NCBI GenBank assembly: GCA_964525525.1
Contig: CAZGHD010000001.1
Location: 5,288 to 69,287 of the forward strand
Direction of reading: 5' to 3'
From: an uncultured Lachnospiraceae bacterium
GTDB lineage: Bacteria > Bacillota > Clostridia > Oscillospirales > CAG-272
DNA length: 64,000 nt
Shown here: positions 6,983-38,440 of the stretch, piece after piece
Layout of the letters: each line of letters starts with the position of its first letter
Numbering within the stretch: position 1 is the stretch's first letter
Notes under the pieces: model-generated
Databases searched by the model: none
What the model saw: only the letters and a program-made list of their open reading frames with translations
What the model was told of the DNA's origin: nothing
Translations under genes and position numbers: made by a program

Positions 6983-7573
6983 TTATTTCTTTTTTCGCTC
7001 TGCCGCCGTAAAATCCCAATCGGACAGCTCGTCGTCTGTGACGAGGAAGGCTTTTTTGGATATTTTCGCGAGCGGTGTGTCTGAATACGAGTCTGAATAG
7101 AACTCGTCTATCTCCGCATTGCCAAACTCTTCTCTGAAGCGGGCTACCTTTTCTTCTCCGTAGCAGTTTTCGCCGGTGTATTTGCCGCTTTTTTTGTCAA
7201 CACGGGAAGCGATAAGATGTTTTATTCCGAGCGCATCGCACGCGGGGCGCAGTAAAAATTCGGGCGAGGCGGAGATTACCACGTCATCCTCTCGGTGGAT
7301 GTCTTTATAGAGCTGTTTTACGTCGTCCATATTACCGCGCCAGAATTCGGCAACGTATGCGTCTATATCCTTGATGCCGCGGAAAAATCGGTAAAAACGC
7401 TCCTTAAAAGCGGTCTTTTTTATAAAACCGAGCGTGAATCTCGCAAAGTGAAATCCCTGCGCGGGCAGATACCTTAACAGCAGAGGATTTTTTCTGATAC
7501 AGAAAAAGTAAAATTTAGCTGTGCTGTCGTGATATGAAATGGTTTTGTCAAAATCGTATACGTTCAAAATCAA
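6983..7573 (-). CDS. HAD-superfamily hydrolase, subfamily IB-like
   Basis: N-terminal DFDKT nucleophile motif (MILNVYDFDKTI) and a C-terminal SDSYSD motif. Confidence 0.75.
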   Translation of the reverse strand: MILNVYDFDKTISYHDSTAKFYFFCIRKNPLLLRYLPAQGFHFARFTLGFIKKTAFKERFYRFFRGIKDIDAYVAEFWRGNMDDVKQLYKDIHREDDVVISASPEFLLRPACDALGIKHLIASRVDKKSGKYTGENCYGEEKVARFREEFGNAEIDEFYSDSYSDTPLAKISKKAFLVTDDELSDWDFTAAERKKK

Positions 7574-7590: not shown

Positions 7591-9594
7591 TTAACTTCCT
7601 TGAGTACTTACCCGGCTGATTATGTGATCCTGCATTTCGGTGCAGAGATCGACGAATCTCGCGCTGTAACCCCAGACACGGACGATCAGATCGGCGTGAG
7701 AGTCGGGATCTTTTTGCGCCGCTTTGAGTTCTTCTACGTCGTAGGCGGCGATGTTGAACATCGAAAGTCCTTTTTCGATTCCGGCATCAACCAGGGTTTC
7801 CATTACAGTCATTTGCTGTTCTCTTGGGAGATTGAGCATTTTCGGAATGGAGATATGTACCGCCGCAACTCCGAATGCGCGGCCGAGATCAGCCTTGCCA
7901 ATGGAGTTAATAAGTGCCGTCGGACCGTTTAACGCGCGGCCGGGAGTAGCGCAGTAATGCTCGGCTATGGGATCCTTCCACTTGCGTCCGTCAGGCGTTG
8001 CCCAGGTGCCGTAAGCCTCCTGCAAAAACAGCCAGCCGACAAGCGACGGCCATATCAGGATACCGTTATCGCGGCTGAATTCTTCAAGCCAGTCGCAGAA
8101 ATTTTTCGCAATATCTGCGGCGATAAGATCGACCTCGTCAATATCGTTTCCGAATTTAGGTGCGGCAAGAAGGGCAGAGCGAATCTCGTCGTGTCCTTCA
8201 AAGTTTGCCGCGAGAGCATCCATAACCTCGGTCATCGTGTATTTTTTGTCGTCGTAAACGACCTTTTTGATAGCCGCTATCCCGTCAGCGACGGTGGGGA
8301 TAGAGCCGGAGAATATCTGATAACACTCAACCGGCATTCCGCGAATCATATCGCGTCCGCTGTCAAGCACGAAATCAAACGTACCGTTTAAGATAAACGA
8401 GCCGTGTTCTTTTACTCTGTATTCGTGGCGTAATTTAAGGCCTTCACAGCATTGGAGCGCCTGATATTTGTATTGCGAGAGAAATACGTTATAGAATTCA
8501 TCAAAGGTTTTGCATTCGGTGACGTCTCCGCTTTCAAATCCGAGAGATGCGTCGGGGCGATGTATTGACGGCTGATTGTCTTTGTGCCAGTATCGAACGC
8601 CTTGATCTTCCGGGCGGTCAAACAATTTACCGTTGTTCATAGTGATCTCAAGAGTGGATACTGCGTCTATATGATCGAAGTTTATCATACTTCCGCCGTC
8701 GATAATTATCTCGGTACATCCGTCGTTTGTGTAACGGCAAGCCCAATTTTCTGGGATTCCCGCTTTAACGAGCGCAGGGATGATTATCTCGTCGTTATAT
8801 ACCGTTGCCTGGCCGTGTCCGAGGAGCTGAACTTCAAACGCTTTTTCTCTCAGTTCGGCAGGCATATTTTTGTGGAAACGCACGTTCATATGAGGCTCGG
8901 GCATTTTTACGCGGCGGGTAGCCTCAAGCATAAGAACAGAAAGGCGGTTTGACGCATCGCTTCCGTCCTCGTTTCTTCCGCCGACCATCACGTTGATAAG
9001 AGTATCTCCTGTACCGCAGGTGTTAAGACGCTCCCAAAGATCGCAAAGAATATCCTGCGCTTCGTCTTCGGTGATAATGCCGTTTTTCACGTCGTTCTCG
9101 TAAAAACCGCCGAGCGCGACGTCAAGACGGCCGATGCACGAGGTACCGAACACGTTACGCAGACGCCACATAAGATAGAAAAGCTGTACCGCTTGTTCAA
9201 AGGTTTCGGGCTTTCCATCGGCTATTGCCGCCATATTTTTACGCATACGCAGAAGTCGCGCGTCGTCACTGTTCGTGATCATTTCGTCTAACTGCGCGAC
9301 CGTCCTTTTGAAAAAATCTGCTATCTCAAGATACACCTCGCCGAGAAGAGTGAGAAATTCCTTTTCTTCTTCGCCCGCGCTTTCCGCGTTTTTGAACGCC
9401 TTTTCGGCGATGCCTTTAACTCCGTATTTATAAAACGCATCGCCCATAGGGAAGTGGAGGTTATCGTTAGGACCGAAATACACGGGATGCCCGTGCATCG
9501 GAATGCCGACGATGCACCCCTTTTCGGGAATTTCAGCGATGATGGCGCGTGTCAGCGCATTACAGTCTCTTGCTATATCTTGGTAAGCTGACAT
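7591..9594 (-). CDS. Glycyl radical enzyme (PFL-like fold), short 667-aa form, eliminase-type Cys loop
   Basis: C-terminal glycyl radical motif RVWGYSARF (Gly codon at 7669-7671). Cys loop NDGCTEI (Cys codon at 8716-8718). Other conserved GRE blocks are IGRLD, ATPDGR and GPTALINS. Confidence 0.85.
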   Translation of the reverse strand: MSAYQDIARDCNALTRAIIAEIPEKGCIVGIPMHGHPVYFGPNDNLHFPMGDAFYKYGVKGIAEKAFKNAESAGEEEKEFLTLLGEVYLEIADFFKRTVAQLDEMITNSDDARLLRMRKNMAAIADGKPETFEQAVQLFYLMWRLRNVFGTSCIGRLDVALGGFYENDVKNGIITEDEAQDILCDLWERLNTCGTGDTLINVMVGGRNEDGSDASNRLSVLMLEATRRVKMPEPHMNVRFHKNMPAELREKAFEVQLLGHGQATVYNDEIIIPALVKAGIPENWACRYTNDGCTEIIIDGGSMINFDHIDAVSTLEITMNNGKLFDRPEDQGVRYWHKDNQPSIHRPDASLGFESGDVTECKTFDEFYNVFLSQYKYQALQCCEGLKLRHEYRVKEHGSFILNGTFDFVLDSGRDMIRGMPVECYQIFSGSIPTVADGIAAIKKVVYDDKKYTMTEVMDALAANFEGHDEIRSALLAAPKFGNDIDEVDLIAADIAKNFCDWLEEFSRDNGILIWPSLVGWLFLQEAYGTWATPDGRKWKDPIAEHYCATPGRALNGPTALINSIGKADLGRAFGVAAVHISIPKMLNLPREQQMTVMETLVDAGIEKGLSMFNIAAYDVEELKAAQKDPDSHADLIVRVWGYSARFVDLCTEMQDHIISRVSTQGS

Positions 9595-9628
9595 AATAGT
9601 CCCTTCCTTTACAAGCGGTTAATGGTGA

Positions 9629-10303
9629 TTACAGCAGTTTTTCAAGCTCGTTAAGCGATTTGATCTCGTAGTCGGGTACCGTGTCTTTGCAGTCAGCACC
9701 GTGCGGATTAAACCACACGGTGACAATTCCCGCGTTCTTTCCGCCTTTAATATCGGACGAAAGACTGTCTCCGATTATCAAAGATTCCTCGCGTTTGAAA
9801 TCTTCTATATTCTCAAAACAGAAATCAAAAAATTCCGCGCTCGGCTTGGTGTGCCCTATTTCCTGCGAGATGAATATGCCGTCAAAATATTTTGCAATAT
9901 CCGCGCATTTTATTCTGCTGCGCTGTACGTGCGAGTGTCCGTTTGATACGACGTACATACGGTACTTGCCGCAAAGTCTGTTTAACAGGTCAATCGCGCC
10001 GTCGATGAAAAAGCACTCAAGAGACAGCTTGCTCTCGTAGTATTCTCCCGCCGCGCGAGGATCTCTGTCCACGCCTATCGCCTCAAAGAAAAGGCTGTAT
10101 CTGCGTAGTCTTACCTCGTCGCGGGTGAGTTTGCCGAGCTCAAGCAGTTTCCACTGCTCGGCGTTGATACGGCTGTACGTAGATATGTTTTCATCGGTAG
10201 GCTCAATGTCCAGGTGAATGAGAGTTTTGGTGAGCGCCGCACGCTCGGATTTTTTGAAATCGAGCAGGGTGTCGTCAAGATCGAAAAGAATGTTTTTTAT
10301 CAT
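9629..10303 (-). CDS. HAD-IA hydrolase (YjjG-like nucleotidase/phosphatase)
   Basis: DLDDTLLDF motif I, VVSNG motif II, GDSLSSD motif IV. Confidence 0.8.
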   Translation of the reverse strand: MIKNILFDLDDTLLDFKKSERAALTKTLIHLDIEPTDENISTYSRINAEQWKLLELGKLTRDEVRLRRYSLFFEAIGVDRDPRAAGEYYESKLSLECFFIDGAIDLLNRLCGKYRMYVVSNGHSHVQRSRIKCADIAKYFDGIFISQEIGHTKPSAEFFDFCFENIEDFKREESLIIGDSLSSDIKGGKNAGIVTVWFNPHGADCKDTVPDYEIKSLNELEKLL

Positions 10304-11049
10304 CAGAGTGCGTTCGCTTCCTTGATTTTAAGATATTCCGCGAAGTATCTGTGTCCGAACTCGCGCAGAGATACCGAGTTGAAATGGATCCCGTCTTCCT
10401 TGAGTGTAAGATCCTCGGCACTTACAACGGCGCAAAGCGGAAGCTCTGCCGCTATCTCTGCAAAAATGCCGTTCATACGGAAAAACTTATTAAGATCGTA
10501 CTTTTCGGGATCGCGGGTAGTAGCGAGCTCGCCGATAAGCACCGGCACGTTCTGCGCGCCGAGCTGTTCTCTCATCTCGGTCATCATACGGATAAAGCGC
10601 TCTTTGTAGGTCGGCCACGATTCGTCACGTCCGCAGTCAGCCTCACCCTGATGCCAGATTATGCATTTGAGTTCGGACGTGCGCTTAGCAAGCTTGGTCA
10701 TAGCTACCGCGTGATCGAAAAGGAGCTCGCCCGGCATCCACTGTTCAAGTCTCGTGCCGCCGTCAGCGCACGGGATAAGTCCGACCGGCGCGTTTATGTG
10801 GTTGGCAAAATCGTCCGCAAAGCTTGCCGCAAGGCTGATACCGCTTTTATACTTGCCTACGAACATTGATCTGTCGGTATTTATCGGCTCGCGCATACGC
10901 TGCCATCTTGCCATACGGAGCATATAGCAGTTTTCGTTTTCTATCGGCTCAACGTCGCCTATATCTCCTCTGCCCGCCATGTTTGACTGGCCTATCATAA
11001 GTACGCTACTGACAAGTTTGTCAACACTGTTAAGTCCGTCGTTTATCAT
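10303..11049 (-). CDS. SASA/DUF303-type SGNH esterase (sialate O-acetylesterase-like)
   Basis: GQSNMAGRG nucleophile block near the N-terminus. Its stop overlaps the downstream HAD start as ATGA. Confidence 0.7.
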   Translation of the reverse strand: MINDGLNSVDKLVSSVLMIGQSNMAGRGDIGDVEPIENENCYMLRMARWQRMREPINTDRSMFVGKYKSGISLAASFADDFANHINAPVGLIPCADGGTRLEQWMPGELLFDHAVAMTKLAKRTSELKCIIWHQGEADCGRDESWPTYKERFIRMMTEMREQLGAQNVPVLIGELATTRDPEKYDLNKFFRMNGIFAEIAAELPLCAVVSAEDLTLKEDGIHFNSVSLREFGHRYFAEYLKIKEANAL

Positions 11050-11054
11050 TTCTG

Positions 11055-11867
11055 TTATTTCCTTTCGGGAATTATAAATTTATCGCTTTCCTTGAGTCCC
11101 AGTTCGTCACGTATCAGCTCAAATCTTGCTTTTGCTATCGCGAGCGTGGCAGGCTTATGCGCGTCACTGCCGAAATAGAATTTTGCGCCGCACTCTTTTG
11201 CTATCCTGTACGGGCGGAGCATACGCTCTCTTTCCTCGGGAGTGTGGGTCTCGTAGCCTCCGATGTTAAGCTCAACGCCTACGCCCTTTTTTGCTATTTT
11301 GCCGAACAGATATTTGTACGTATCGTCCTCTATCATATCGTAAAAGGTTATTTCGTCCATGTCAAGTCCGCGTTTGCCGAGGCTGCAGGTAATATGTGCG
11401 ATACCCATCTTTTCAAAAGGAAGATCCATATCAAGCAGCTTGTCAATACGGTTTACGTAAGTTTCTTTTCTTACCTCTACCGAGTCGTATCCCTCTTCCG
11501 ATATGGTAAACCCTCGCATATGCATATGGGTCGTAGAGATGATTATAAAGTCGAATTTATCCATCGTCTCGGGGCGGATACCCAAGTTCATATCCTTGTC
11601 GAGGTCTGTCTCGCAGCCGAAAAGCAGTTTTACATTTTCACTCTGCGGAAGCGGTAGCCAGGAGGATACGTGCTCGAAATCCTGTCCGGGATAAAATCCC
11701 GATTCGTTATAAAACGGGCCGTCCCACATATGGTCGGTCAGACAGAGAGTGGTGAATCCGTTTTCTTCTCCGTATTTGAGAATGTTTTCAGGGGTCTGAT
11801 CTTTGTTCTTCGAGCAATAGGAGAGCTGCGTGTGAATGTGGAAGTCGTGGTCGATTACGTATTTCAT
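11055..11867 (-). CDS. PHP-domain metal-dependent phosphoesterase
   Basis: DFHIHTQLSYCS motif and a later GSDAH motif. Start moved to the internal ATG at 11867 (RBS AAGGAAAAA), because the longer ORF start at 11945 overlaps the upstream gene. Confidence 0.75.
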   Translation of the reverse strand: MKYVIDHDFHIHTQLSYCSKNKDQTPENILKYGEENGFTTLCLTDHMWDGPFYNESGFYPGQDFEHVSSWLPLPQSENVKLLFGCETDLDKDMNLGIRPETMDKFDFIIISTTHMHMRGFTISEEGYDSVEVRKETYVNRIDKLLDMDLPFEKMGIAHITCSLGKRGLDMDEITFYDMIEDDTYKYLFGKIAKKGVGVELNIGGYETHTPEERERMLRPYRIAKECGAKFYFGSDAHKPATLAIAKARFELIRDELGLKESDKFIIPERK

Positions 11868-11883
11868 ATCTGTTTTTCCTTGA

Positions 11884-12726
11884 TTACGCTTCTTTCGGAT
11901 AAGCCTTGTAAAGATGTACGATGTTGAGGTCTTCGGGCATATCAAGTCCGTGAGAGCCGCAGCCGCCGTCTATTTCGTGGCAGCCGTGATCCATCGCAAA
12001 GCCGACGAGAGTATCGTGGCTCTTCCAGTATCTTTCTATAAGCACGCTGAACTCACCGAATGCGGCTGAATTTGCCTTCAGCTCGGAAAGAGCGTGATGA
12101 TGCTCGGGGCCGACTTTGTGCATTCTTGAGTCGAAATTTCCGTTGTAAACTACGATAAAGTCGTACTTATCTTCTATTATTGTCTGAACGACTTTTGCGT
12201 TTGCTTCTTCGATGGTGTTGTATACGAAGTAGTCCATGTTGCGCTCAAGGAATATTTTTGCAAGGCTGCAACCCACCTCCTGCGCGATGATAACGCATTT
12301 TTTACCTGCGCGGATGAGCGCGTCAAATATAGTGTCTATCGTGATAACGGGCTTGGTGTATTTTCTGATGCCGTGAACTTCCGGCTGAGCTCCGGTGTAC
12401 ATAGTGCCGAAGCAAACGGGAGTTACCGACGGCATAACGGTACGGAAGGGAAGCTCAATATCGGTGCGCTCTATCGCCTCACGCATAAGGTGAGGATAGG
12501 TGCGGTATACCCACTCGCCGATAGCGTCGGGATTGTACATAAAAATTCTGTCTGCTTTTCTGCCCTCGAACATACGGTCAACGTATTCGACCAGCTTCTC
12601 TGAGGGGTCTGCCGCGAACTCAGGGCGGTCAACGCCGATTGCGTAGGCAAGTGCGGCGCACAGAGTATCAAGAGAGTTTTCGTTAAGTGTATCTTTTACA
12701 GTGGTGTTGAATTCTTCGAGATTCAT
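11884..12726 (-). CDS. Alkaline-phosphatase-superfamily protein (nucleotide pyrophosphatase/phosphodiesterase-like)
   Basis: MPSVTPVCFGTMYTGAQPEVHGI resembles the NPP nucleophile block. C-terminal metal-ligand-like DHGCHE..GSHG. Confidence 0.55.
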   Translation of the reverse strand: MNLEEFNTTVKDTLNENSLDTLCAALAYAIGVDRPEFAADPSEKLVEYVDRMFEGRKADRIFMYNPDAIGEWVYRTYPHLMREAIERTDIELPFRTVMPSVTPVCFGTMYTGAQPEVHGIRKYTKPVITIDTIFDALIRAGKKCVIIAQEVGCSLAKIFLERNMDYFVYNTIEEANAKVVQTIIEDKYDFIVVYNGNFDSRMHKVGPEHHHALSELKANSAAFGEFSVLIERYWKSHDTLVGFAMDHGCHEIDGGCGSHGLDMPEDLNIVHLYKAYPKEA

Positions 12727-12744: not shown

Positions 12745-13566
12745 CTAAAAATTTATTTTATGAGGTTTTCTTCTTTCGTAGTAATAATATCCGTCAAAAC
12801 CGAGTTCCTTTAGCCTCTCTGATGCGGTTTTGAAATTACGCGCGATGTCTTTTGATGAATGAGCGTCGCTTCCGACGGTTATCTTTTCTCCGCCGAGGGC
12901 TCTGTAACGCGCGAGAATATCGTAGTCGGGAATCGCGTGCATCTCGCCGTCCTCTGCTACAAGTCCGTGAGTATTTACTTCAAGCGAGATTCCGCGTTCT
13001 ATAATACGGCGCAGTATTTTTTCTATCTTGTCGTCAAGACGGGATACGTCAAATCCCATACCGTACTTTCCGTTTATATATCTGAGCGGGCAGGTAAGAT
13101 GTGCGAACGAGTCCATATCGCTTTTGTCGATGTTGTCATAAGCCTGATCAAAATACAGCCCGAGATATTCCTCAATCTCGCCATCCGTCATCTTGTCAAA
13201 CTCCATATGGGCGTATGCGCGGGTGGTACCGTCCCGATAGTCAACGTGATGTATCGCGCCGAGGATGAAGTCAAATTCGGTCAGCGACAGCAGTATCTCC
13301 GCATAATCCAGGCGAAACAAATATTCACCCAGCTCTATTCCGCAGAGAATTTTTATCCTGTCACCGTACTTTTCGCGCGCGGCAGCAACGTCCGAGATAA
13401 GCGAAACTATTCTCGGATGAATTCCGCTTGTTATGTACGTGTGAGTATTTGCGTGGTCGGTTATCGCGACTCCGCGCAGTCCCAGGTCGATGGCGGTCTC
13501 GCATATTTCGCTGACAGTTTGCTTACCGTCAACCGAATTGTTTGAATGTATGTGGCTGTCAAACAT
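12745..13566 (-). CDS. PHP-domain histidinol-phosphatase-family protein
   Basis: MFDSHIHSNNSVDG start, then AITDH and GSDAHS motifs. Confidence 0.8.
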   Translation of the reverse strand: MFDSHIHSNNSVDGKQTVSEICETAIDLGLRGVAITDHANTHTYITSGIHPRIVSLISDVAAAREKYGDRIKILCGIELGEYLFRLDYAEILLSLTEFDFILGAIHHVDYRDGTTRAYAHMEFDKMTDGEIEEYLGLYFDQAYDNIDKSDMDSFAHLTCPLRYINGKYGMGFDVSRLDDKIEKILRRIIERGISLEVNTHGLVAEDGEMHAIPDYDILARYRALGGEKITVGSDAHSSKDIARNFKTASERLKELGFDGYYYYERRKPHKINF

Positions 13567-15189
13567 TTATTTGTTGCGTTCCTTGTGATTTTTTACAGTT
13601 TGTGAGATCAAGTTATAGTCGTTTGTCAGAATGGTATCTATCCCCATGTCAAGGAAATGCTCGGCTTCCTCCGGATCATCGGACCAGAATACGTTGCATA
13701 TGATTCCATGTTCGTGCGCCTTGTCTATCATTGCTTGATTGAAACACGGCTTAAATAATTGGAGCTTTTTGCATTCGTATTTTATTGCGCGTTCAACTAT
13801 ACCCCACTTGTCCTTTCCGCCTCCGCAACAGCGTACAATATCGGGAGCGACCTCGCGCATAAGAGCGAGGAGATTATCGTTTCCGCTCATAAAATAAACG
13901 TATTTTTCACAGTCGTATTTGCGTATCAGTGCGACTATCTTTTGGAGTGTCGTACGATCGTATTCCACATCGTTGTTTACGGTTTTTACGTGAATATTCA
14001 TGATCGTGTGGCAGGCAAATTTCTTTAGTATATCTTCGAAACGGAGTATCTTGAGACCTTTGAATTTTTCTCCGCGCTTTACGCCGAAGTCGTATTGAAA
14101 AAGCTCCTCATAGGTGTATTCGTATACTTTACCCGTACCGTCTGAAACACGGTCAAGAGTTGCATCGTGCAGAGATACAATCTCACCGTCTTTTGTATAC
14201 CAGAGGTCAAATTCTATCTCCTCTGCTCCGAGCGCGATTGCCGCGCCGAATGCGGGCATACTGTTCTCGGGCGCTACGGTGTTGAAACCGCGGTGAGCGC
14301 ACACGCGGGGATATTCCATCAGCCCGTCGTGCTTTACTATTGCGCTTCCGGCGGGACGGTATTTATAGGGACGGCGTCCTTTTTCAATATATTCGTAATG
14401 TGCTGACGGCGGATTACCGAACCCTGCCGGTTTAAAGTATTTATCTTTTATGTTTATTTCTACAGTTTCGATACCGACGCGGCTACCCATGCTCATAAGT
14501 ATCTTTCCGTCAGGAGACGCAACCAGGCTCGCTCCGCCGATGTCTGATGACTCGTCCATTGAGACCGACGAACGGAGAACATATGCATTCGTGTTGTAAG
14601 CAAGGAACGCGCTCATTAGCTCAAGTGCGCGGTGTGTATCACTGCGCTGATGTGAGCATCCGATGATAACGTCCACGTTCATTCTTGCTATATTCGGAAA
14701 CATCTCGTAAAAATAGAAGTCATAGCAGGTGAGAAATGCGAATCTGATTCCTTCCATTTCTACGACATAAGGCTCGGAATGTTCAAACGAGTATCCGCTG
14801 TCAAGCTGAATGTTCGAAACCTCACCCGGTGTAAGGTGCTGTTTGTCGTACCTGCCGACTATCTCGCCGTCTCGGTTTATCGCGTAGGTGGTGTTGCGGC
14901 GCGAGTCTCCGTGATAACTCGATGCATTTATAAACAGCATAGCGTTGCATCTTTTTGCAGTAGCACGAGCCGTATCAAGCAGCTTTTTGTTGTACTTTTC
15001 CGCGCTTGCGTCTGCGTCTTTCTTGGTCTTCGCAAGGCAAGGAACGTCGCATGACTCGGGACAAACTATAATATCTGCGGTTTCGTCACACTGTTCAAAT
15101 AGTTCAAACTCTTTTTCAAAATATTCGTCTGACAGAGAATAATCTGTTGAATATTTAGGCTGAATGATAAACACCTTCAAAGCAATCAC
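13567..15189 (-). CDS. Fusion protein: N-terminal carbon-nitrogen hydrolase (nitrilase superfamily) and C-terminal glycerophosphodiester phosphodiesterase (GDPD)
   Basis: The N-terminal half shows the CN-hydrolase pattern (..ADIIVCPE.., ..FLTCYD..). The C-terminal half has VCAHRGFNTVAPENSMPAF..EIEFDLWYTKDGEIVSLHD, typical of GDPD. The exact start is uncertain: the GTG at 15189 abuts the RBS, and TTG/GTG codons 9-15 nt downstream are more likely. Confidence 0.8.
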   Translation of the reverse strand: MIALKVFIIQPKYSTDYSLSDEYFEKEFELFEQCDETADIIVCPESCDVPCLAKTKKDADASAEKYNKKLLDTARATAKRCNAMLFINASSYHGDSRRNTTYAINRDGEIVGRYDKQHLTPGEVSNIQLDSGYSFEHSEPYVVEMEGIRFAFLTCYDFYFYEMFPNIARMNVDVIIGCSHQRSDTHRALELMSAFLAYNTNAYVLRSSVSMDESSDIGGASLVASPDGKILMSMGSRVGIETVEINIKDKYFKPAGFGNPPSAHYEYIEKGRRPYKYRPAGSAIVKHDGLMEYPRVCAHRGFNTVAPENSMPAFGAAIALGAEEIEFDLWYTKDGEIVSLHDATLDRVSDGTGKVYEYTYEELFQYDFGVKRGEKFKGLKILRFEDILKKFACHTIMNIHVKTVNNDVEYDRTTLQKIVALIRKYDCEKYVYFMSGNDNLLALMREVAPDIVRCCGGGKDKWGIVERAIKYECKKLQLFKPCFNQAMIDKAHEHGIICNVFWSDDPEEAEHFLDMGIDTILTNDYNLISQTVKNHKERNK

Positions 15190-17764: not shown

Positions 17765-19024
17765 TCAGCCTATCTCTGTTACTGCGCCGATAAATATCGG
17801 GAGGGAGGTTGCGTTATCCACTATCGCATAAACGAACGGGCGGTCCAGCACTACTCTTTTTGTCTCTGCCATGGCGCCGTCCCGCATCTCCACTATGGTA
17901 GCCGCGCCTGCGCGGGTGCCGAGCTCATCAACCGAGATAAAAGTTTTGTGACGCACGTCGCCTATAAAGATGTTACCGCGGGAGGAACTGCCGAGCTTTG
18001 TGAAGTCAGCCGCGTTTCCGTCAAATGCGGTGGGCATTCCGAGGTCTTTGAGGATGTCACAGAGCGAAATGTCATAGTCGTATGAAAACTTTGGCAGGGA
18101 GGCGGAAAGATACGAATGTTCGGCGTTTTGAATAAGAGAAATAAACTTGTCGCCGTCAAGATTTTTGATATAGTCGTATATGTCAATTCCTTCGTTTGGT
18201 AAGAACGCTGCAAAGCTGTATTTACCGCCTTCGTAGTTCTTTATAAAACCAGTAGTTTGATCGTCGTGAATGTATGTTGATTCACCTGAGGTCATCATTT
18301 TTACTTTCTGCTTTTCGCCGTTATACGCAGTAAACGTTCCGTTTTGAATATCGTTTTTCTCGTACGTTTTCTGCCACTCGGCGTCAAACGTTACCGCGTT
18401 GATAAGATACATTACCGCGTATTCGTCTATTTCGTCAAGGATCTTATCTATCATTCCGTCGGTGTTGTTTTTTACCCAGTTGTTTATATCCTTTAAGGTC
18501 TGACGGTCAAACGGAGCTTTATACGCGTCGGCAGAGTAGTAGTCCGCATTTTTTTGAAGGAACTCTTTTTCTACCGTGAGTCTGTTCTCGTCATCACGGA
18601 ACCATATCGAGTTTGCTATCTCGAGCTTGTATTTTTCTTCACTGGGTAGATTTTTTACGTAGGAGTGAAGATATTCGTTCAGCTCTCCTATCGTTTTTTC
18701 GCCGCCGAGCAGGGCTTCCATTTCTTGCTTTGTCTGACCGTCTGCTCCGTTTGCCGTCATGGCGAGGGCGAGGATAACCGACAGAGGAGACACGAGCAGA
18801 CTTTCGGTTTCTCCGTTTGCTTTGCTTTCCGCGGCAGACGCTTTGAAAAGTTCTAAATACAGCTTTGCCTGCTGTGAAATGAAGTCACTGTCTGCAGCTT
18901 TTTCGGTGACGTTTTCGGGAGTTATGCCCTCCATCAGGTCAGCTGCTTGAACCTTGGTGCATCCGACGAGGTTAAGCGGCATTACAAGCGCGAGTAAAAG
19001 GCAGATCAACGTGATCGGTTTCAT
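17765..19024 (-). CDS. Serpin (serine protease inhibitor), lipoprotein
   Basis: Lipobox LVGC. Serpin blocks SPLSVILALAMTANGADGQT and NWV..T.G.I. Hinge/RCL region DELGTRAGAATIVEMRDGA..LDRPF. Confidence 0.85.
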   Translation of the reverse strand: MKPITLICLLLALVMPLNLVGCTKVQAADLMEGITPENVTEKAADSDFISQQAKLYLELFKASAAESKANGETESLLVSPLSVILALAMTANGADGQTKQEMEALLGGEKTIGELNEYLHSYVKNLPSEEKYKLEIANSIWFRDDENRLTVEKEFLQKNADYYSADAYKAPFDRQTLKDINNWVKNNTDGMIDKILDEIDEYAVMYLINAVTFDAEWQKTYEKNDIQNGTFTAYNGEKQKVKMMTSGESTYIHDDQTTGFIKNYEGGKYSFAAFLPNEGIDIYDYIKNLDGDKFISLIQNAEHSYLSASLPKFSYDYDISLCDILKDLGMPTAFDGNAADFTKLGSSSRGNIFIGDVRHKTFISVDELGTRAGAATIVEMRDGAMAETKRVVLDRPFVYAIVDNATSLPIFIGAVTEIG

Positions 19025-35842: not shown

Positions 35843-38440
35843 TTACTTATTATCCCTTGCGGCGATGTCAGCTTCGTAGTTTGCTCTGTCCTGAGTGCCG
35901 AGGGCGTTGCGGAAGAGAACTATTCCGGACTCGTCTTCGTCAAAGGTGTATTCTACCGAGCCGTGCCAGCCGTTACCGAGCTCTGTCGGTTCGTAACGGC
36001 GGAACAGTGAATCAGCCACGGGGAAGTAGCCCTCGCCCTTGCCGCGGTAATCGGTCAGCTCCCAGATGCAGTCGAGCTTGCCGTCCTTTCCGTACGGGCG
36101 GGAGAATTTAACTATACCTATCTCGGGTGCAAACCAGTACTCCATCTTGCCGCCGCGATAGCCGTAACCTCCTTCGGGACCGGTAAGATCGAATTTTATG
36201 TGTCGGCAGTTTTCAAACGTTCCCGCTTTGGTTATAACGGTTTCCTCGTCAAGCACGTCGAACACAAGGTGATTGGATTTTCCTTTCCACGTGGGCACGT
36301 TGCGCTCATCGTGATACCCGGGTATCCATTCGTCACTCCATATAGTACCTGCCGCGTCATAGAGAATATCGTAAAGGAAGCTATAGAGAACTTTATAGCC
36401 CTCGTCTCCGCAGTTACCCATATCCTTCCACTCAAAGCTGTATTTTCTGTTGTCAGAAATTTTAACCTTTCCGTCATTTGTGTCAACGTCTATAAGCTCA
36501 AAGAAGTTCCAATGTCCCTTTTCGGTATAACTCGGGTTGAAACCGGGGTCGGTTGCCAATATACGCTGCATTACGTCGGTCGCGATAGCGATATGCACCT
36601 TTTCACGCTTGGTTTTTGCAAGCTCTGCGGCGCGGGCAAGCGGCTTGCTTACGTCTACGATAGCTTCACCACCGTCGTTTTCGGTATAATAACCGCGACG
36701 TACGTGGAGCATATTACCTTTCCATGAATCATCGTAACCGAGATGCTGTACGAATGTGTATGCTTTGACAGTTACGCTGTCGTCGGCAGCGGCGGTTACC
36801 TCAAAGGTGTTTTCCGCTTCGACTATAACTGCGTCGGTGGATTTGGGTGTGTAGCTCCATTTGTTGCCCACAGCGAACGGGAGCATTCCGCTGCCGCCGA
36901 GTATGGTGTAGCTGTCAAGCTCCCATTCATTTGTCTCGTCATAGCGGTTTACGATCTGGTGCACGATACCGACGCCGGGACAGAAGGTGGTATCGCAGAA
37001 TTTAACACCGTATTTTTCACCTTTGAAACGGTAAAGTGAGCAGTTTTCAAATTTTCCTGCAGGGGTATCGACAGTTACGTCGTTTGATACGTAAGTCAGG
37101 GTGCTGTCACCGCTTGTCTTAACGTCGCCCGGCTTCATTTCGGGGTCGTATATAAGACTGTTAAGTCTCGAGCACTGCCAGAAAAGTGATGAGTCGTATT
37201 CGTCTGCATAGCCGCGGTGATAACCCGGCTGTGACCAGAAATAGAGCTTACCGTCGATATACTTATATACCTCGCCCTGAACTCCGAAACGGAATTTTTC
37301 ATAGGGGAGATCAAGCTCGTGCGCTTTTTTCTCCGCGTCGATCGCCGCGAGAGCGTTTGCGTAGTAAACGTCGCTCGGCTCGAGAAGCTCGAGTACCTTG
37401 TTGTATGCATTCATACAGTCCTCGTAATTTTTCTCGTCGCGGGAGTAGCATCCGTACCAGAAGTATGTGTATGCCAAGGATTTTACAAATCCGTTTTCTT
37501 CGAGAAACGGCATCTGCGTATTTTTCATAAAATCAAGGCGTTCTTTGCCGGAATATTTTCCGTGCTCATACGCCATTACCGACTGCATTACATCGTCGTT
37601 ATGGCTATTTAACGCTGCGTCCTTCATTTTAGCAAGAACTTCGTCGTTTCTCTCACCCGGCAACCACCAATATCCTCTCATAAGTACCTCTGCGAGAGCG
37701 TACTGCTTTTCATTTGATTCATCAAGCGCTTCGACGTCCCCAAGGACACGGCGATATTCTTCCTCAAAGCCGGTTATGTCGTCTCTGATCTGCCACAGCT
37801 TGAGCTCCTCGACCTGCCGCATAACGCGTTTTACGAGAGCTTCGTTTTCGTCGTATGTCTTTTCCATAATACCGTATTCCTTTCTCAGTTGTTTCCGCCC
37901 CTCGCACAGACGCCACTTTACCGTCCCTGCCGGCAGGGAAAGGCGCGCGGCTATCTCGGCGACCGAAAGACCTTCAAAGTAATGCAGAGTGACCGCCTCG
38001 CGTATCTTTTCACTCAGTGCTTCAACGGCCGTGTGAAGCTCTGACGCCTGCTCGTCCTTTGACAGATTTGCGATACCGAGCATATCGAGTATTTCGCTAT
38101 TCTCATCGTCTGCAAGCTCAATGCCCGAGAGCAGGTCAAGGCTGATGTCGGGAACGGTACTGCGGTAGTGAGCGACCAGAGTGCGAGCCTTGTTTTTGGC
38201 TATGTGACACACCCAGGAACCGAATTTATTGCGGTCTTTGAGCGAGTCGAGATTGATCCACGCAGAAACGAATGCGTCCTGTGACGCATCCTGCGCGGAA
38301 AATTCGTTTTCGGTCACCTTGTAGGCAGTTCCGAGAACCGAACGCTCGTGACGCAGTACCAGCTCTTCAAACGCGAGCTGATTTCCGAGCAGGGTCAGCT
38401 CTACGAGAACGTCGTCATTGTGTTCCGTGTGTTTTGTCAT
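35843..38440 (-). CDS. ECF-type sigma factor fused to a roughly 670-aa soluble C-terminal extension
   Basis: Residues 1-190 hold sigma regions 2 and 4 (..QDAFVSAWINL..FGSWVCHIAKNKA.., ..LSVAEIAARLSLPAGTVKWRLCEGRKQL). The rest has no TM segment. It comprises a helical W/Y-rich part and then two related beta-rich modules (AGKFENC..PGVGIV..WEL / AGTFENC..PEIGIV..WEL). Confidence 0.8.
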   Translation of the reverse strand: MTKHTEHNDDVLVELTLLGNQLAFEELVLRHERSVLGTAYKVTENEFSAQDASQDAFVSAWINLDSLKDRNKFGSWVCHIAKNKARTLVAHYRSTVPDISLDLLSGIELADDENSEILDMLGIANLSKDEQASELHTAVEALSEKIREAVTLHYFEGLSVAEIAARLSLPAGTVKWRLCEGRKQLRKEYGIMEKTYDENEALVKRVMRQVEELKLWQIRDDITGFEEEYRRVLGDVEALDESNEKQYALAEVLMRGYWWLPGERNDEVLAKMKDAALNSHNDDVMQSVMAYEHGKYSGKERLDFMKNTQMPFLEENGFVKSLAYTYFWYGCYSRDEKNYEDCMNAYNKVLELLEPSDVYYANALAAIDAEKKAHELDLPYEKFRFGVQGEVYKYIDGKLYFWSQPGYHRGYADEYDSSLFWQCSRLNSLIYDPEMKPGDVKTSGDSTLTYVSNDVTVDTPAGKFENCSLYRFKGEKYGVKFCDTTFCPGVGIVHQIVNRYDETNEWELDSYTILGGSGMLPFAVGNKWSYTPKSTDAVIVEAENTFEVTAAADDSVTVKAYTFVQHLGYDDSWKGNMLHVRRGYYTENDGGEAIVDVSKPLARAAELAKTKREKVHIAIATDVMQRILATDPGFNPSYTEKGHWNFFELIDVDTNDGKVKISDNRKYSFEWKDMGNCGDEGYKVLYSFLYDILYDAAGTIWSDEWIPGYHDERNVPTWKGKSNHLVFDVLDEETVITKAGTFENCRHIKFDLTGPEGGYGYRGGKMEYWFAPEIGIVKFSRPYGKDGKLDCIWELTDYRGKGEGYFPVADSLFRRYEPTELGNGWHGSVEYTFDEDESGIVLFRNALGTQDRANYEADIAARDNK

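Follow-up and report, generated by a model that had tools for sequence, protein, structure and literature searches.

Glycyl radical enzymes (GREs) run key anaerobic reactions of the gut, including trimethylamine formation, hydroxyproline use, and sulfonate use, and each needs a cognate radical S-adenosylmethionine (radical-SAM) activating enzyme, or activase, that is usually encoded adjacent to it. The GRE gene considered here lies at positions 7591–9594 of the minus strand of a 64,000-nucleotide stretch of DNA (the window, by which we mean the whole stretch analysed) from an uncultured Lachnospiraceae bacterium (assembly GCA_964525525.1), where it comes seventh in a tight run of eight minus-strand genes. 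It forms one open frame with no internal stop and specifies a protein of 667 residues and ~75 kDa (P0001). Sequence comparison and structural modelling are best explained if the gene encodes a functional GRE, a CXE-type eliminase or isomerase that falls outside every curated functional family. The gene and its defining elements are:

7591–9594, minus strand: short GRE of the RVWG family (P0001), from translation, profile searches, alignments, and an AlphaFold model
9601–9610, minus strand: strong Shine-Dalgarno sequence AAAGGAAGGG; 6 nt separate it from the ATG of the GRE gene
9454–9456, minus strand: codon of His47 in an invariant DNxH[YF]P loop, from the family alignment and the alignment to HypD
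8710–8718, minus strand: codons of Cys293-Thr294-Glu295, which form the CXE motif in the Cys loop (NDGCTEI; Cys293 at 8716–8718), from alignment and PMC13450708, section 5.6
7672–7674, minus strand: codon of the family-invariant Trp641, directly before the Gly642 codon
7669–7671, minus strand: codon of Gly642, where the glycyl radical is predicted to sit, in RVWGYSARF, from translation, family alignment, and fingerprint

A first-pass annotation of the window had described a radical-site motif (RVWGYSARF), a Cys loop (NDGCTEI), and ATPDGR and GPTALINS blocks in this protein, and translation confirmed all four, with Gly642 and Cys293 at the codons listed above. Pfam profiles PF02901 (PFL-like; E 6e-89, profile positions 166–629 of 647) and PF01228 (Gly_radical; E 3e-14) both match the protein, and its C-terminus, RVWGYSARFVDLCTEMQDHIISR, matches the published fingerprint RVxG[FWY]x6-8[FL]x4Qx2[IV]x2R (PMC13450708). 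The triplet Cys293-Thr294-Glu295 aligns with Cys433-Val-Glu435 of glycerol dehydratase, and a CXE motif is the mark of GRE eliminases and isomerases (PMC13450708). His47 aligns with chain residue 180 of HypD structure 6vxc, which is native His160; because alignments to glycerol dehydratase begin after the His47 loop, we infer, rather than read off, its equivalence to the general-acid His164 of that enzyme. Taken together, these alignments suggest that the protein keeps the full eliminase/isomerase set, with Gly642 as radical store, Cys293 as thiyl residue, Glu295 as base, and His47 as acid.

A confident AlphaFold2 model (pLDDT 92, pTM 0.92), for which 24 family members were used, contains the full set of strands of the ten-stranded barrel, together with the cap helix and the hairpins of the Cys and Gly loops. 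The best Foldseek matches of the model are B12-independent glycerol dehydratase, propanediol dehydratase, and CutC, with TM-scores of 0.80–0.86 on query length and ~0.68–0.73 on the longer targets. GREs are typically 80–100 kDa, with N-terminal helices making up a conserved dimer interface (PMC13450708), a size that the 667-residue protein does not reach. Alignments to solved GREs start at query residues 47–110 against chain residues 160–260, so the deficit of ~115–125 residues is entirely N-terminal, and because the start codon lies only 34 nt beyond the end of the upstream gene, a remnant of a longer N-terminus is impossible. The first-pass annotation had also seen that the protein is short, probably by trimming at the N-terminus, and was right in where it placed the deficit; the lengths of relatives add that the short N-terminus is a family-wide architecture, neither decay nor a trimming of this gene alone. 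Crystals of YbiW and PflD lack the canonical dimer, which is of note because the N-terminal helices absent here form the dimer interface. Two readings were rejected, namely that barrel strands are missing (the modelled barrel is complete) and that the gene is a decaying pseudogene (family-invariant positions are kept, and frame and ribosome-binding site are intact). The alignments and the structure prediction that the first-pass annotation had called for thus returned intact catalytic residues and an intact barrel, and so not a decayed gene.

The protein belongs to a large family. A search of 5.8 billion proteins returned 889 matches, and the best 120 of these, to which the identity and length figures refer, are 42–57% identical to the window GRE and 528–718 residues long, mostly 660–700. 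In an alignment of 24 members, 92 columns are invariant, among them RVWG, GC-E, His47, PKFGND, and the D-G-R of ATPDGR, and the window GRE keeps 92 of 92. Among the 120 best relatives the motifs take the invariant forms RVWG[YF], NDGCTE, and DNxH; in the family alignment Cys293 and Glu295 are invariant and Thr294 nearly so. Judged from these sequences, the hallmark of the family is a Trp directly before the radical Gly, where characterised GREs have Ala, Ser, or Cys. Other GREs of the source genome have Gly, Ser, or Cys at this position, except for one second Trp-type GRE (contigs C134/C18). This Trp-loop clade of oxygen-sensitive enzymes is large, conserved, of smaller architecture, and unique in the Trp beside its radical Gly, and is without a characterised member.

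A scan guided by motifs, with one genome taken per species, gave 80 loci; among these and further assembly loci, 77 distinct ones carry an R[VIL]WG-loop GRE (L-numbers below denote loci of relatives). Hosts include many Clostridia, Planctomycetota, Latescibacterota, Lentisphaerota, Desulfobacterota, Spirochaetota, Bacteroidota, Actinomycetota, and a Thermoplasmata archaeon. No family member at E <= 1e-150 turned up in 300 sampled genomes from the same order as the source organism (153 genera, three candidates scored per genome), so vertical conservation is unusable as an argument; this result and the wide phyletic spread together point to a patchy, probably horizontal, distribution. In the GRE tree the window GRE has L025 as its sister (support 98), and the two belong to a clade of 25 members (support 99); in active-site columns compared across clades the window GRE resembles L025, with no decisive substrate signature. 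The archaeal locus (L103:220-3273, from a metagenome-assembled genome) holds a Trp-loop GRE with an adjoining activase; its open frame is 1017 residues long and may include an N-terminal extension. There is no archaeal PFL-like GRE of known function (PMC13450708).

Placement against curated classes bears out a further suggestion of the first-pass annotation, that the enzyme represents a divergent subclass: it scores far under all curated GRE cut-offs, within a conserved family of 660–700-residue proteins with Trp before Gly. Against TIGR01774 (the PFL2/glycerol dehydratase subfamily) it scores 260 bits for a cut-off of 678, and against the NCBIfam equivalogs for CutC, HypD, HpfG/HpsG, PFL, HPAD, and indoleacetate decarboxylase 68–232 bits for cut-offs of 994–1150 (CutC, 214 vs 1050; HypD, 216 vs 1100). 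The best matches among known enzymes are glycerol dehydratase of Clostridium butyricum (1r8w) and GRE propanediol dehydratase (5i2g, 9rco), at E 4e-59 and TM 0.82–0.86. With these the window GRE has in common a barrel of ten strands, a Gly loop, a Cys loop with CXE, Ser282, and probably the catalytic His (His47 corresponding to HypD His160 and, by the argument above, to His164). They need a PflC-type activase with extra ferredoxin-like clusters, and the same is predicted for the window GRE. Unlike them, it is ~120 residues shorter at the N-terminus, only 24–27% identical, and has Trp where they have Ala before the radical Gly; it also differs from glycerol dehydratase in the replacement of H281, Y339, and Y640, in falling far under the TIGR01774 cut-off, and in its genomic partners. 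CutC and HypD share the eliminase fold and the CXE motif, and the His loop aligns with HypD His160, but their substrate-binding residues are absent from the window GRE and their genomic context is unrelated. A 2026 review counts six C–O eliminases, CutC, three C–S lyases, and three isomerases, about a dozen in all, and describes whole GRE clades as still without validation (PMC13450708). None of the eliminases or isomerases in that review is short, Trp-looped, or DeoC-linked, and a literature search, with subscription journals outside its reach, found no paper on the Trp-loop family.

The window GRE has no activase beside it. None of the 56 non-overlapping open reading frames (ORFs) of at least 80 residues in the window contains a CX3CX2C motif, and a TIGR02494 search of the whole assembly gave no match on the 90-kb contig that holds the window (C1). 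The absence of an activase from the 64 kb, already reported by the first-pass annotation, is thereby confirmed, and an overlooked adjacent activase is ruled out in the window and on C1. A tblastn census of the 77 family loci found an activase in 59; of the 44 whose flanks reach at least 5 kb on both sides, 40 have one, so the missing neighbour is significant for this family. An earlier census by ORF clustering (50/79 loci; 23/32 with full flanks) was discarded as an undercount, since greedy ORF picking and coverage rules had lost activases. The four full-flank loci without an activase (the window, L025, L036, and L037) all fall in one subclade.

An activase encoded elsewhere, as the first-pass annotation had supposed, is what the whole-genome search points to. 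The assembly (2.27 Mb, 217 contigs, 85% complete, 5.5% contamination) encodes five activases, none on C1: four PflC-type enzymes on contigs C134, C2, C61, and C22, and one PflA-type enzyme on C21. At least 12 GRE genes or fragments (on C2, C5, C21, C22, C25, C61, C91, C134/C18, and C152) stand against these five, so activase sharing must be common in the source organism. The C134 activase is 53–56% identical to activases adjoining family GREs, and the remaining four are 35–47% identical to a panel of such activases. In a maximum-likelihood tree the clade of family-adjacent activases, the family's cognate clade, encloses the C134 activase, whose sisters there are the L038/L083 activases (support 97/87); a second clade, of activases from operons that hold a family GRE (L023, L033, L085), includes the C2 activase. 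Neither GC content nor tetranucleotide profile sets contigs C1, C134, and C18 apart from the bin, and activases lie elsewhere in the genomes of L036 and L037; that of L036 encodes, away from its family locus, an activase followed by a C134-like GRE (46% and 43% identity). These comparisons make activation of the window GRE in trans a well-supported reading, and we infer that the C134 activase is the best candidate partner, with the C2 activase second. If so, the window GRE would be a natural case of trans-activation, useful for studying activase specificity. The C134 activase is itself followed by the N-terminal half of another GRE, whose C-terminal half is probably the C18 fragment with an RLWGV loop (Trp before Gly). 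A search for metabolic context around the C134 activase placed it between housekeeping genes (tgt, mutL, mutS).

Clues to the reaction come from the operons of relatives. In the 25-member clade of the window GRE, the typical operon comprises GntR, DeoC, an FGGY kinase, an Fe-type alcohol dehydrogenase (Fe-ADH), the GRE, and its activase. The DeoC belongs to the deoxyribose-phosphate aldolase equivalog TIGR00126 (182 bits for a cut-off of 117), the FGGY kinase is nearest to xylulokinase but under the cut-off, and the Fe-ADH is nearest to the NCBIfam alcohol dehydrogenase equivalog PRK15138, well under its cut-off. A much deeper branch of the family (27–29% identity; Desulfobacterota and Spirochaetota) is likewise linked to DeoC and FGGY.

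The operon of the window itself is differently equipped. Besides the GRE, it contains:

13567–15189, minus strand: fusion of CN-hydrolase and glycerophosphodiester phosphodiesterase (GDPD), first gene of the operon, from domain matches
12745–13566, minus strand: PHP phosphatase of the HisJ family (TIGR01856, 111 bits for a cut-off of 90)
11884–12726, minus strand: protein related to type I phosphodiesterase/nucleotide pyrophosphatase, from a domain match
11055–11945, minus strand: PHP-domain phosphoesterase, from a domain match; its true start is probably an internal ATG near 11867
10303–11049, minus strand: SASA/SGNH carbohydrate esterase, from a domain match
9629–10303, minus strand: HAD phosphatase of the YjjG family of noncanonical pyrimidine nucleotidases, directly upstream of the GRE (TIGR02254, 221 bits for a cut-off of 160)
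6983–7573, minus strand: HAD-IB family phosphatase, last gene of the operon, 17 nt past the GRE stop, from a domain match

No signal peptide is predicted in any of the eight proteins, and the operon is a cytoplasmic phosphoesterase operon. The GDPD fusion recurs with the family: two such fusions adjoin the GRE of L021 (8218–9813 and 12927–14447; 50% and 43% identical to that of the window) and one adjoins the GRE of L026 (8480–10096; 46% identical), and both loci also carry Fe-ADH and an activase. The CN-hydrolase domain is of the nitrilase/amidase superfamily, and its fusion to GDPD recurs by the short GRE in two separate lineages. The window GRE links its family to phosphodiester catabolism.

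We hypothesize that the GRE makes the 2-deoxy substrate of DeoC, because no other enzyme of the relatives' operon could create it. In relatives, the FGGY kinase would turn a pentitol into pentitol-5-phosphate, the GRE would, in the simplest case, convert this by radical 1,2-dehydration to 2-deoxyribose-5-phosphate, DeoC would cleave that to glyceraldehyde-3-phosphate and acetaldehyde, and Fe-ADH would reduce the acetaldehyde to ethanol. In the source organism, the CN-hydrolase-GDPD phosphodiesterase and the phosphatases would replace the FGGY kinase, with the polyol phosphate (or polyol) coming from phosphodiester hydrolysis. Once the C134 activase (or the C2 activase) had activated the window GRE in trans, its thiyl radical would take a hydrogen from a carbinol carbon of the polyol or sugar phosphate, Glu295 would deprotonate the hydroxyl on that carbon, and the vicinal C–O bond would break with protonation by His47, giving a 2-deoxy-aldehyde phosphate.

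A precedent for such logic exists in YbiW and PflD, sugar-phosphate GRE isomerases of the 'radical glycolysis' of 1,5-anhydroglucitol and 1,5-anhydromannitol 6-phosphate (PMC13450708). They share the CXE motif with the window GRE, and their route resembles that proposed for the relatives' operons, running from phosphorylation through radical C–O cleavage to a deoxy-sugar phosphate, then through an aldolase (glyceraldehyde-3-phosphate plus a small carbonyl) to a reductase. Many relatives in the window clade possess the corresponding kinase, aldolase, and reductase (FGGY, DeoC, and Fe-ADH), whereas the window operon has the GDPD fusion and phosphatases instead. The two systems differ in that YbiW and PflD are of lower similarity to the window GRE (E 2e-46 and 9e-43) and longer (765–810 residues, Gly loop without Trp), the relatives' aldolase is DeoC and not Fsa, their kinase is FGGY and not a phosphotransferase system, and the proposed product is a 2-deoxy aldose rather than a 1-deoxy ketose.

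The overall proposal, of a functional, trans-activated GRE that cleaves a C–O bond of a polyol or sugar phosphate, is one whose chances we judge to be evenly balanced. Its specific chemistry, polyol- or sugar-phosphate C–O cleavage feeding DeoC, draws on gene neighbourhood and is put forward tentatively, at even chances or somewhat below them. That the family forms a new functional class, its members small (~75 kDa), minimal at the N-terminus, and marked by a Trp-Gly loop, converting polyol phosphates (e.g., pentitol-5-phosphates) to 2-deoxy-aldose phosphates for DeoC, with the bulky Trp as a distinct solution to activase recognition or radical shielding, is a possibility that we hold to be somewhat unlikely. 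The kinase, DeoC, and alcohol dehydrogenase partners give a testable hypothesis of a new radical sugar-alcohol or deoxy-sugar pathway; if it is true, anaerobes would gain a radical fermentation route for sugar alcohols or phosphodiester-derived polyol phosphates without an oxidative first step.

Several observations weigh against this proposal. The window operon lacks DeoC, FGGY kinase, and Fe-ADH, and a search of the source genome for a GntR-DeoC-FGGY-FeADH operon found only scattered distant homologues (on C63, C29, C1 at ~84 kb, and C107), its only DeoC (C63) being 36% identical to operon-type DeoCs. The polyol-phosphate assignment comes only from gene neighbourhood in relatives, and a large sister clade (35–44% identity) sits in GH32/fructokinase loci without DeoC, so that different clades probably act on different substrates. 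Two HAD phosphatases stand on either side of the GRE and could mean a dephosphorylated substrate, such as glycerol. As to activation, the pairing with an activase is a matter of phylogeny only and the C134 activase adjoins a GRE of its own; a closer activase may lie unassembled, the genome being 85% complete; and activase–GRE specificity is poorly understood (PMC13450708, section 2.5).

Dehydration of glycerol, or of another short 1,2-diol, is the alternative that survives best, and we consider it unlikely. The GDPD would release glycerol-3-phosphate, the HAD or PHP enzymes would convert this to glycerol, the GRE would form 3-hydroxypropanal, and Fe-ADH would yield 1,3-propanediol, which would serve as an electron sink. 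The best matches in sequence and fold are the B12-independent glycerol and propanediol dehydratases, yet the window GRE scores 260 against the 678 demanded by TIGR01774. The GDPD fusion and the four phosphatases or phosphoesterases that surround the GRE agree with such a route, and L021 and L026 pair GDPD, GRE, and Fe-ADH without kinase or DeoC; the window operon, however, has no Fe-ADH, and the recurrent DeoC and FGGY kinase of the same clade would be left unexplained. At the active site, pairwise alignment places S152 and D307 on S282 and D447 of glycerol dehydratase, but D307 is not conserved across the family, and H281, Y339, and Y640, the glycerol-binding residues of that enzyme, are replaced by T151, L199, and V518, with L199 in the family-invariant GDTL motif.

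Less probable still, to the point of being a minor candidate, is a C–N or C–O–P lyase acting on the head group freed by the CN-hydrolase-GDPD fusion (ethanolamine, an amino alcohol, or phosphate elimination), with an acetaldehyde product that Fe-ADH or DeoC would handle in relatives. The amidase-like domain fused to GDPD invites this idea, acetaldehyde is used by both Fe-ADH and DeoC, and the CXE motif is common to CutC and C–S lyases; the CutC model nevertheless scores only 214 of the required 1050, no role is left for the FGGY sugar kinase, and DeoC would have to work towards synthesis, which fits poorly with catabolism. An amine could be bound by the acidic residues D44 and D197, which are invariant in the family, though no cation pocket, aromatic or anionic, is known. 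Very improbable, finally, is a silent or decaying orphan that lost its activase and is never activated, or a chimeric bin that joins C1 to activase contigs of another organism: the 90-kb contig without an activase, the incompleteness and contamination of the bin, and the absence of the family from 300 same-order genomes (the gene being patchy or acquired) would allow it, but the gene keeps all family-invariant positions, its frame, and its ribosome-binding site within a tightly packed operon, C1, C134, and C18 fit the bin in composition, L025, L036, and L037 are equally conserved without an adjacent activase, and the L036 and L037 genomes hold activases elsewhere.

The sister-clade loci mentioned above (L045, L047, L055, L062, L070-L072, and L077, with the GRE at ~10001–12000 in each) are of the fructan-utilisation type, combining LacI and a CUT1 ABC transporter with two or three GH32 enzymes, a PfkB fructokinase, and an activase. 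A second GRE family, of ~712–719 residues, occurs in operons together with a Trp-loop GRE (L023:13960-16101, L039:6367-8526, and L085:9965-12103); its Gly loop reads RIGGHSRYF, and the His after the Gly lies outside the published RVxG[FWY] fingerprint.

The source genome is unusually GRE-rich against its relatives, with 27 first-look GRE candidates versus 0–7 in relatives of the same order. Its GREs include tandem arrays on C2, C91, and C152, and their Gly loops are unusual (RIGGFS, RVGGYC/S, RVCGWN, RVSGFS, RLWGV); PFL and the C2 pair aside, the complete enzymes are only 667–728 residues long. One of them, on the plus strand of C5 (21941–23944), is a second 667-residue CXE-type GRE (GCTE, RVGGFSEYF), 23% identical to the window GRE and on a contig without an activase.

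Elsewhere in the window, a 419-residue serpin is encoded just upstream of the operon (17765–19024, minus strand; PF00079, E 4e-86); its neighbours there are a GH28-like beta-helix protein and an AXE1-type esterase. Serpins are uncommon in bacteria. Between positions 38000 and 50000 the composition shifts sharply, from a GC fraction of 0.36–0.41 at 38–42 kb to 0.52–0.54 at 44–50 kb, and the 44–50 kb segment holds long minus-strand ORFs of 793–924 residues.

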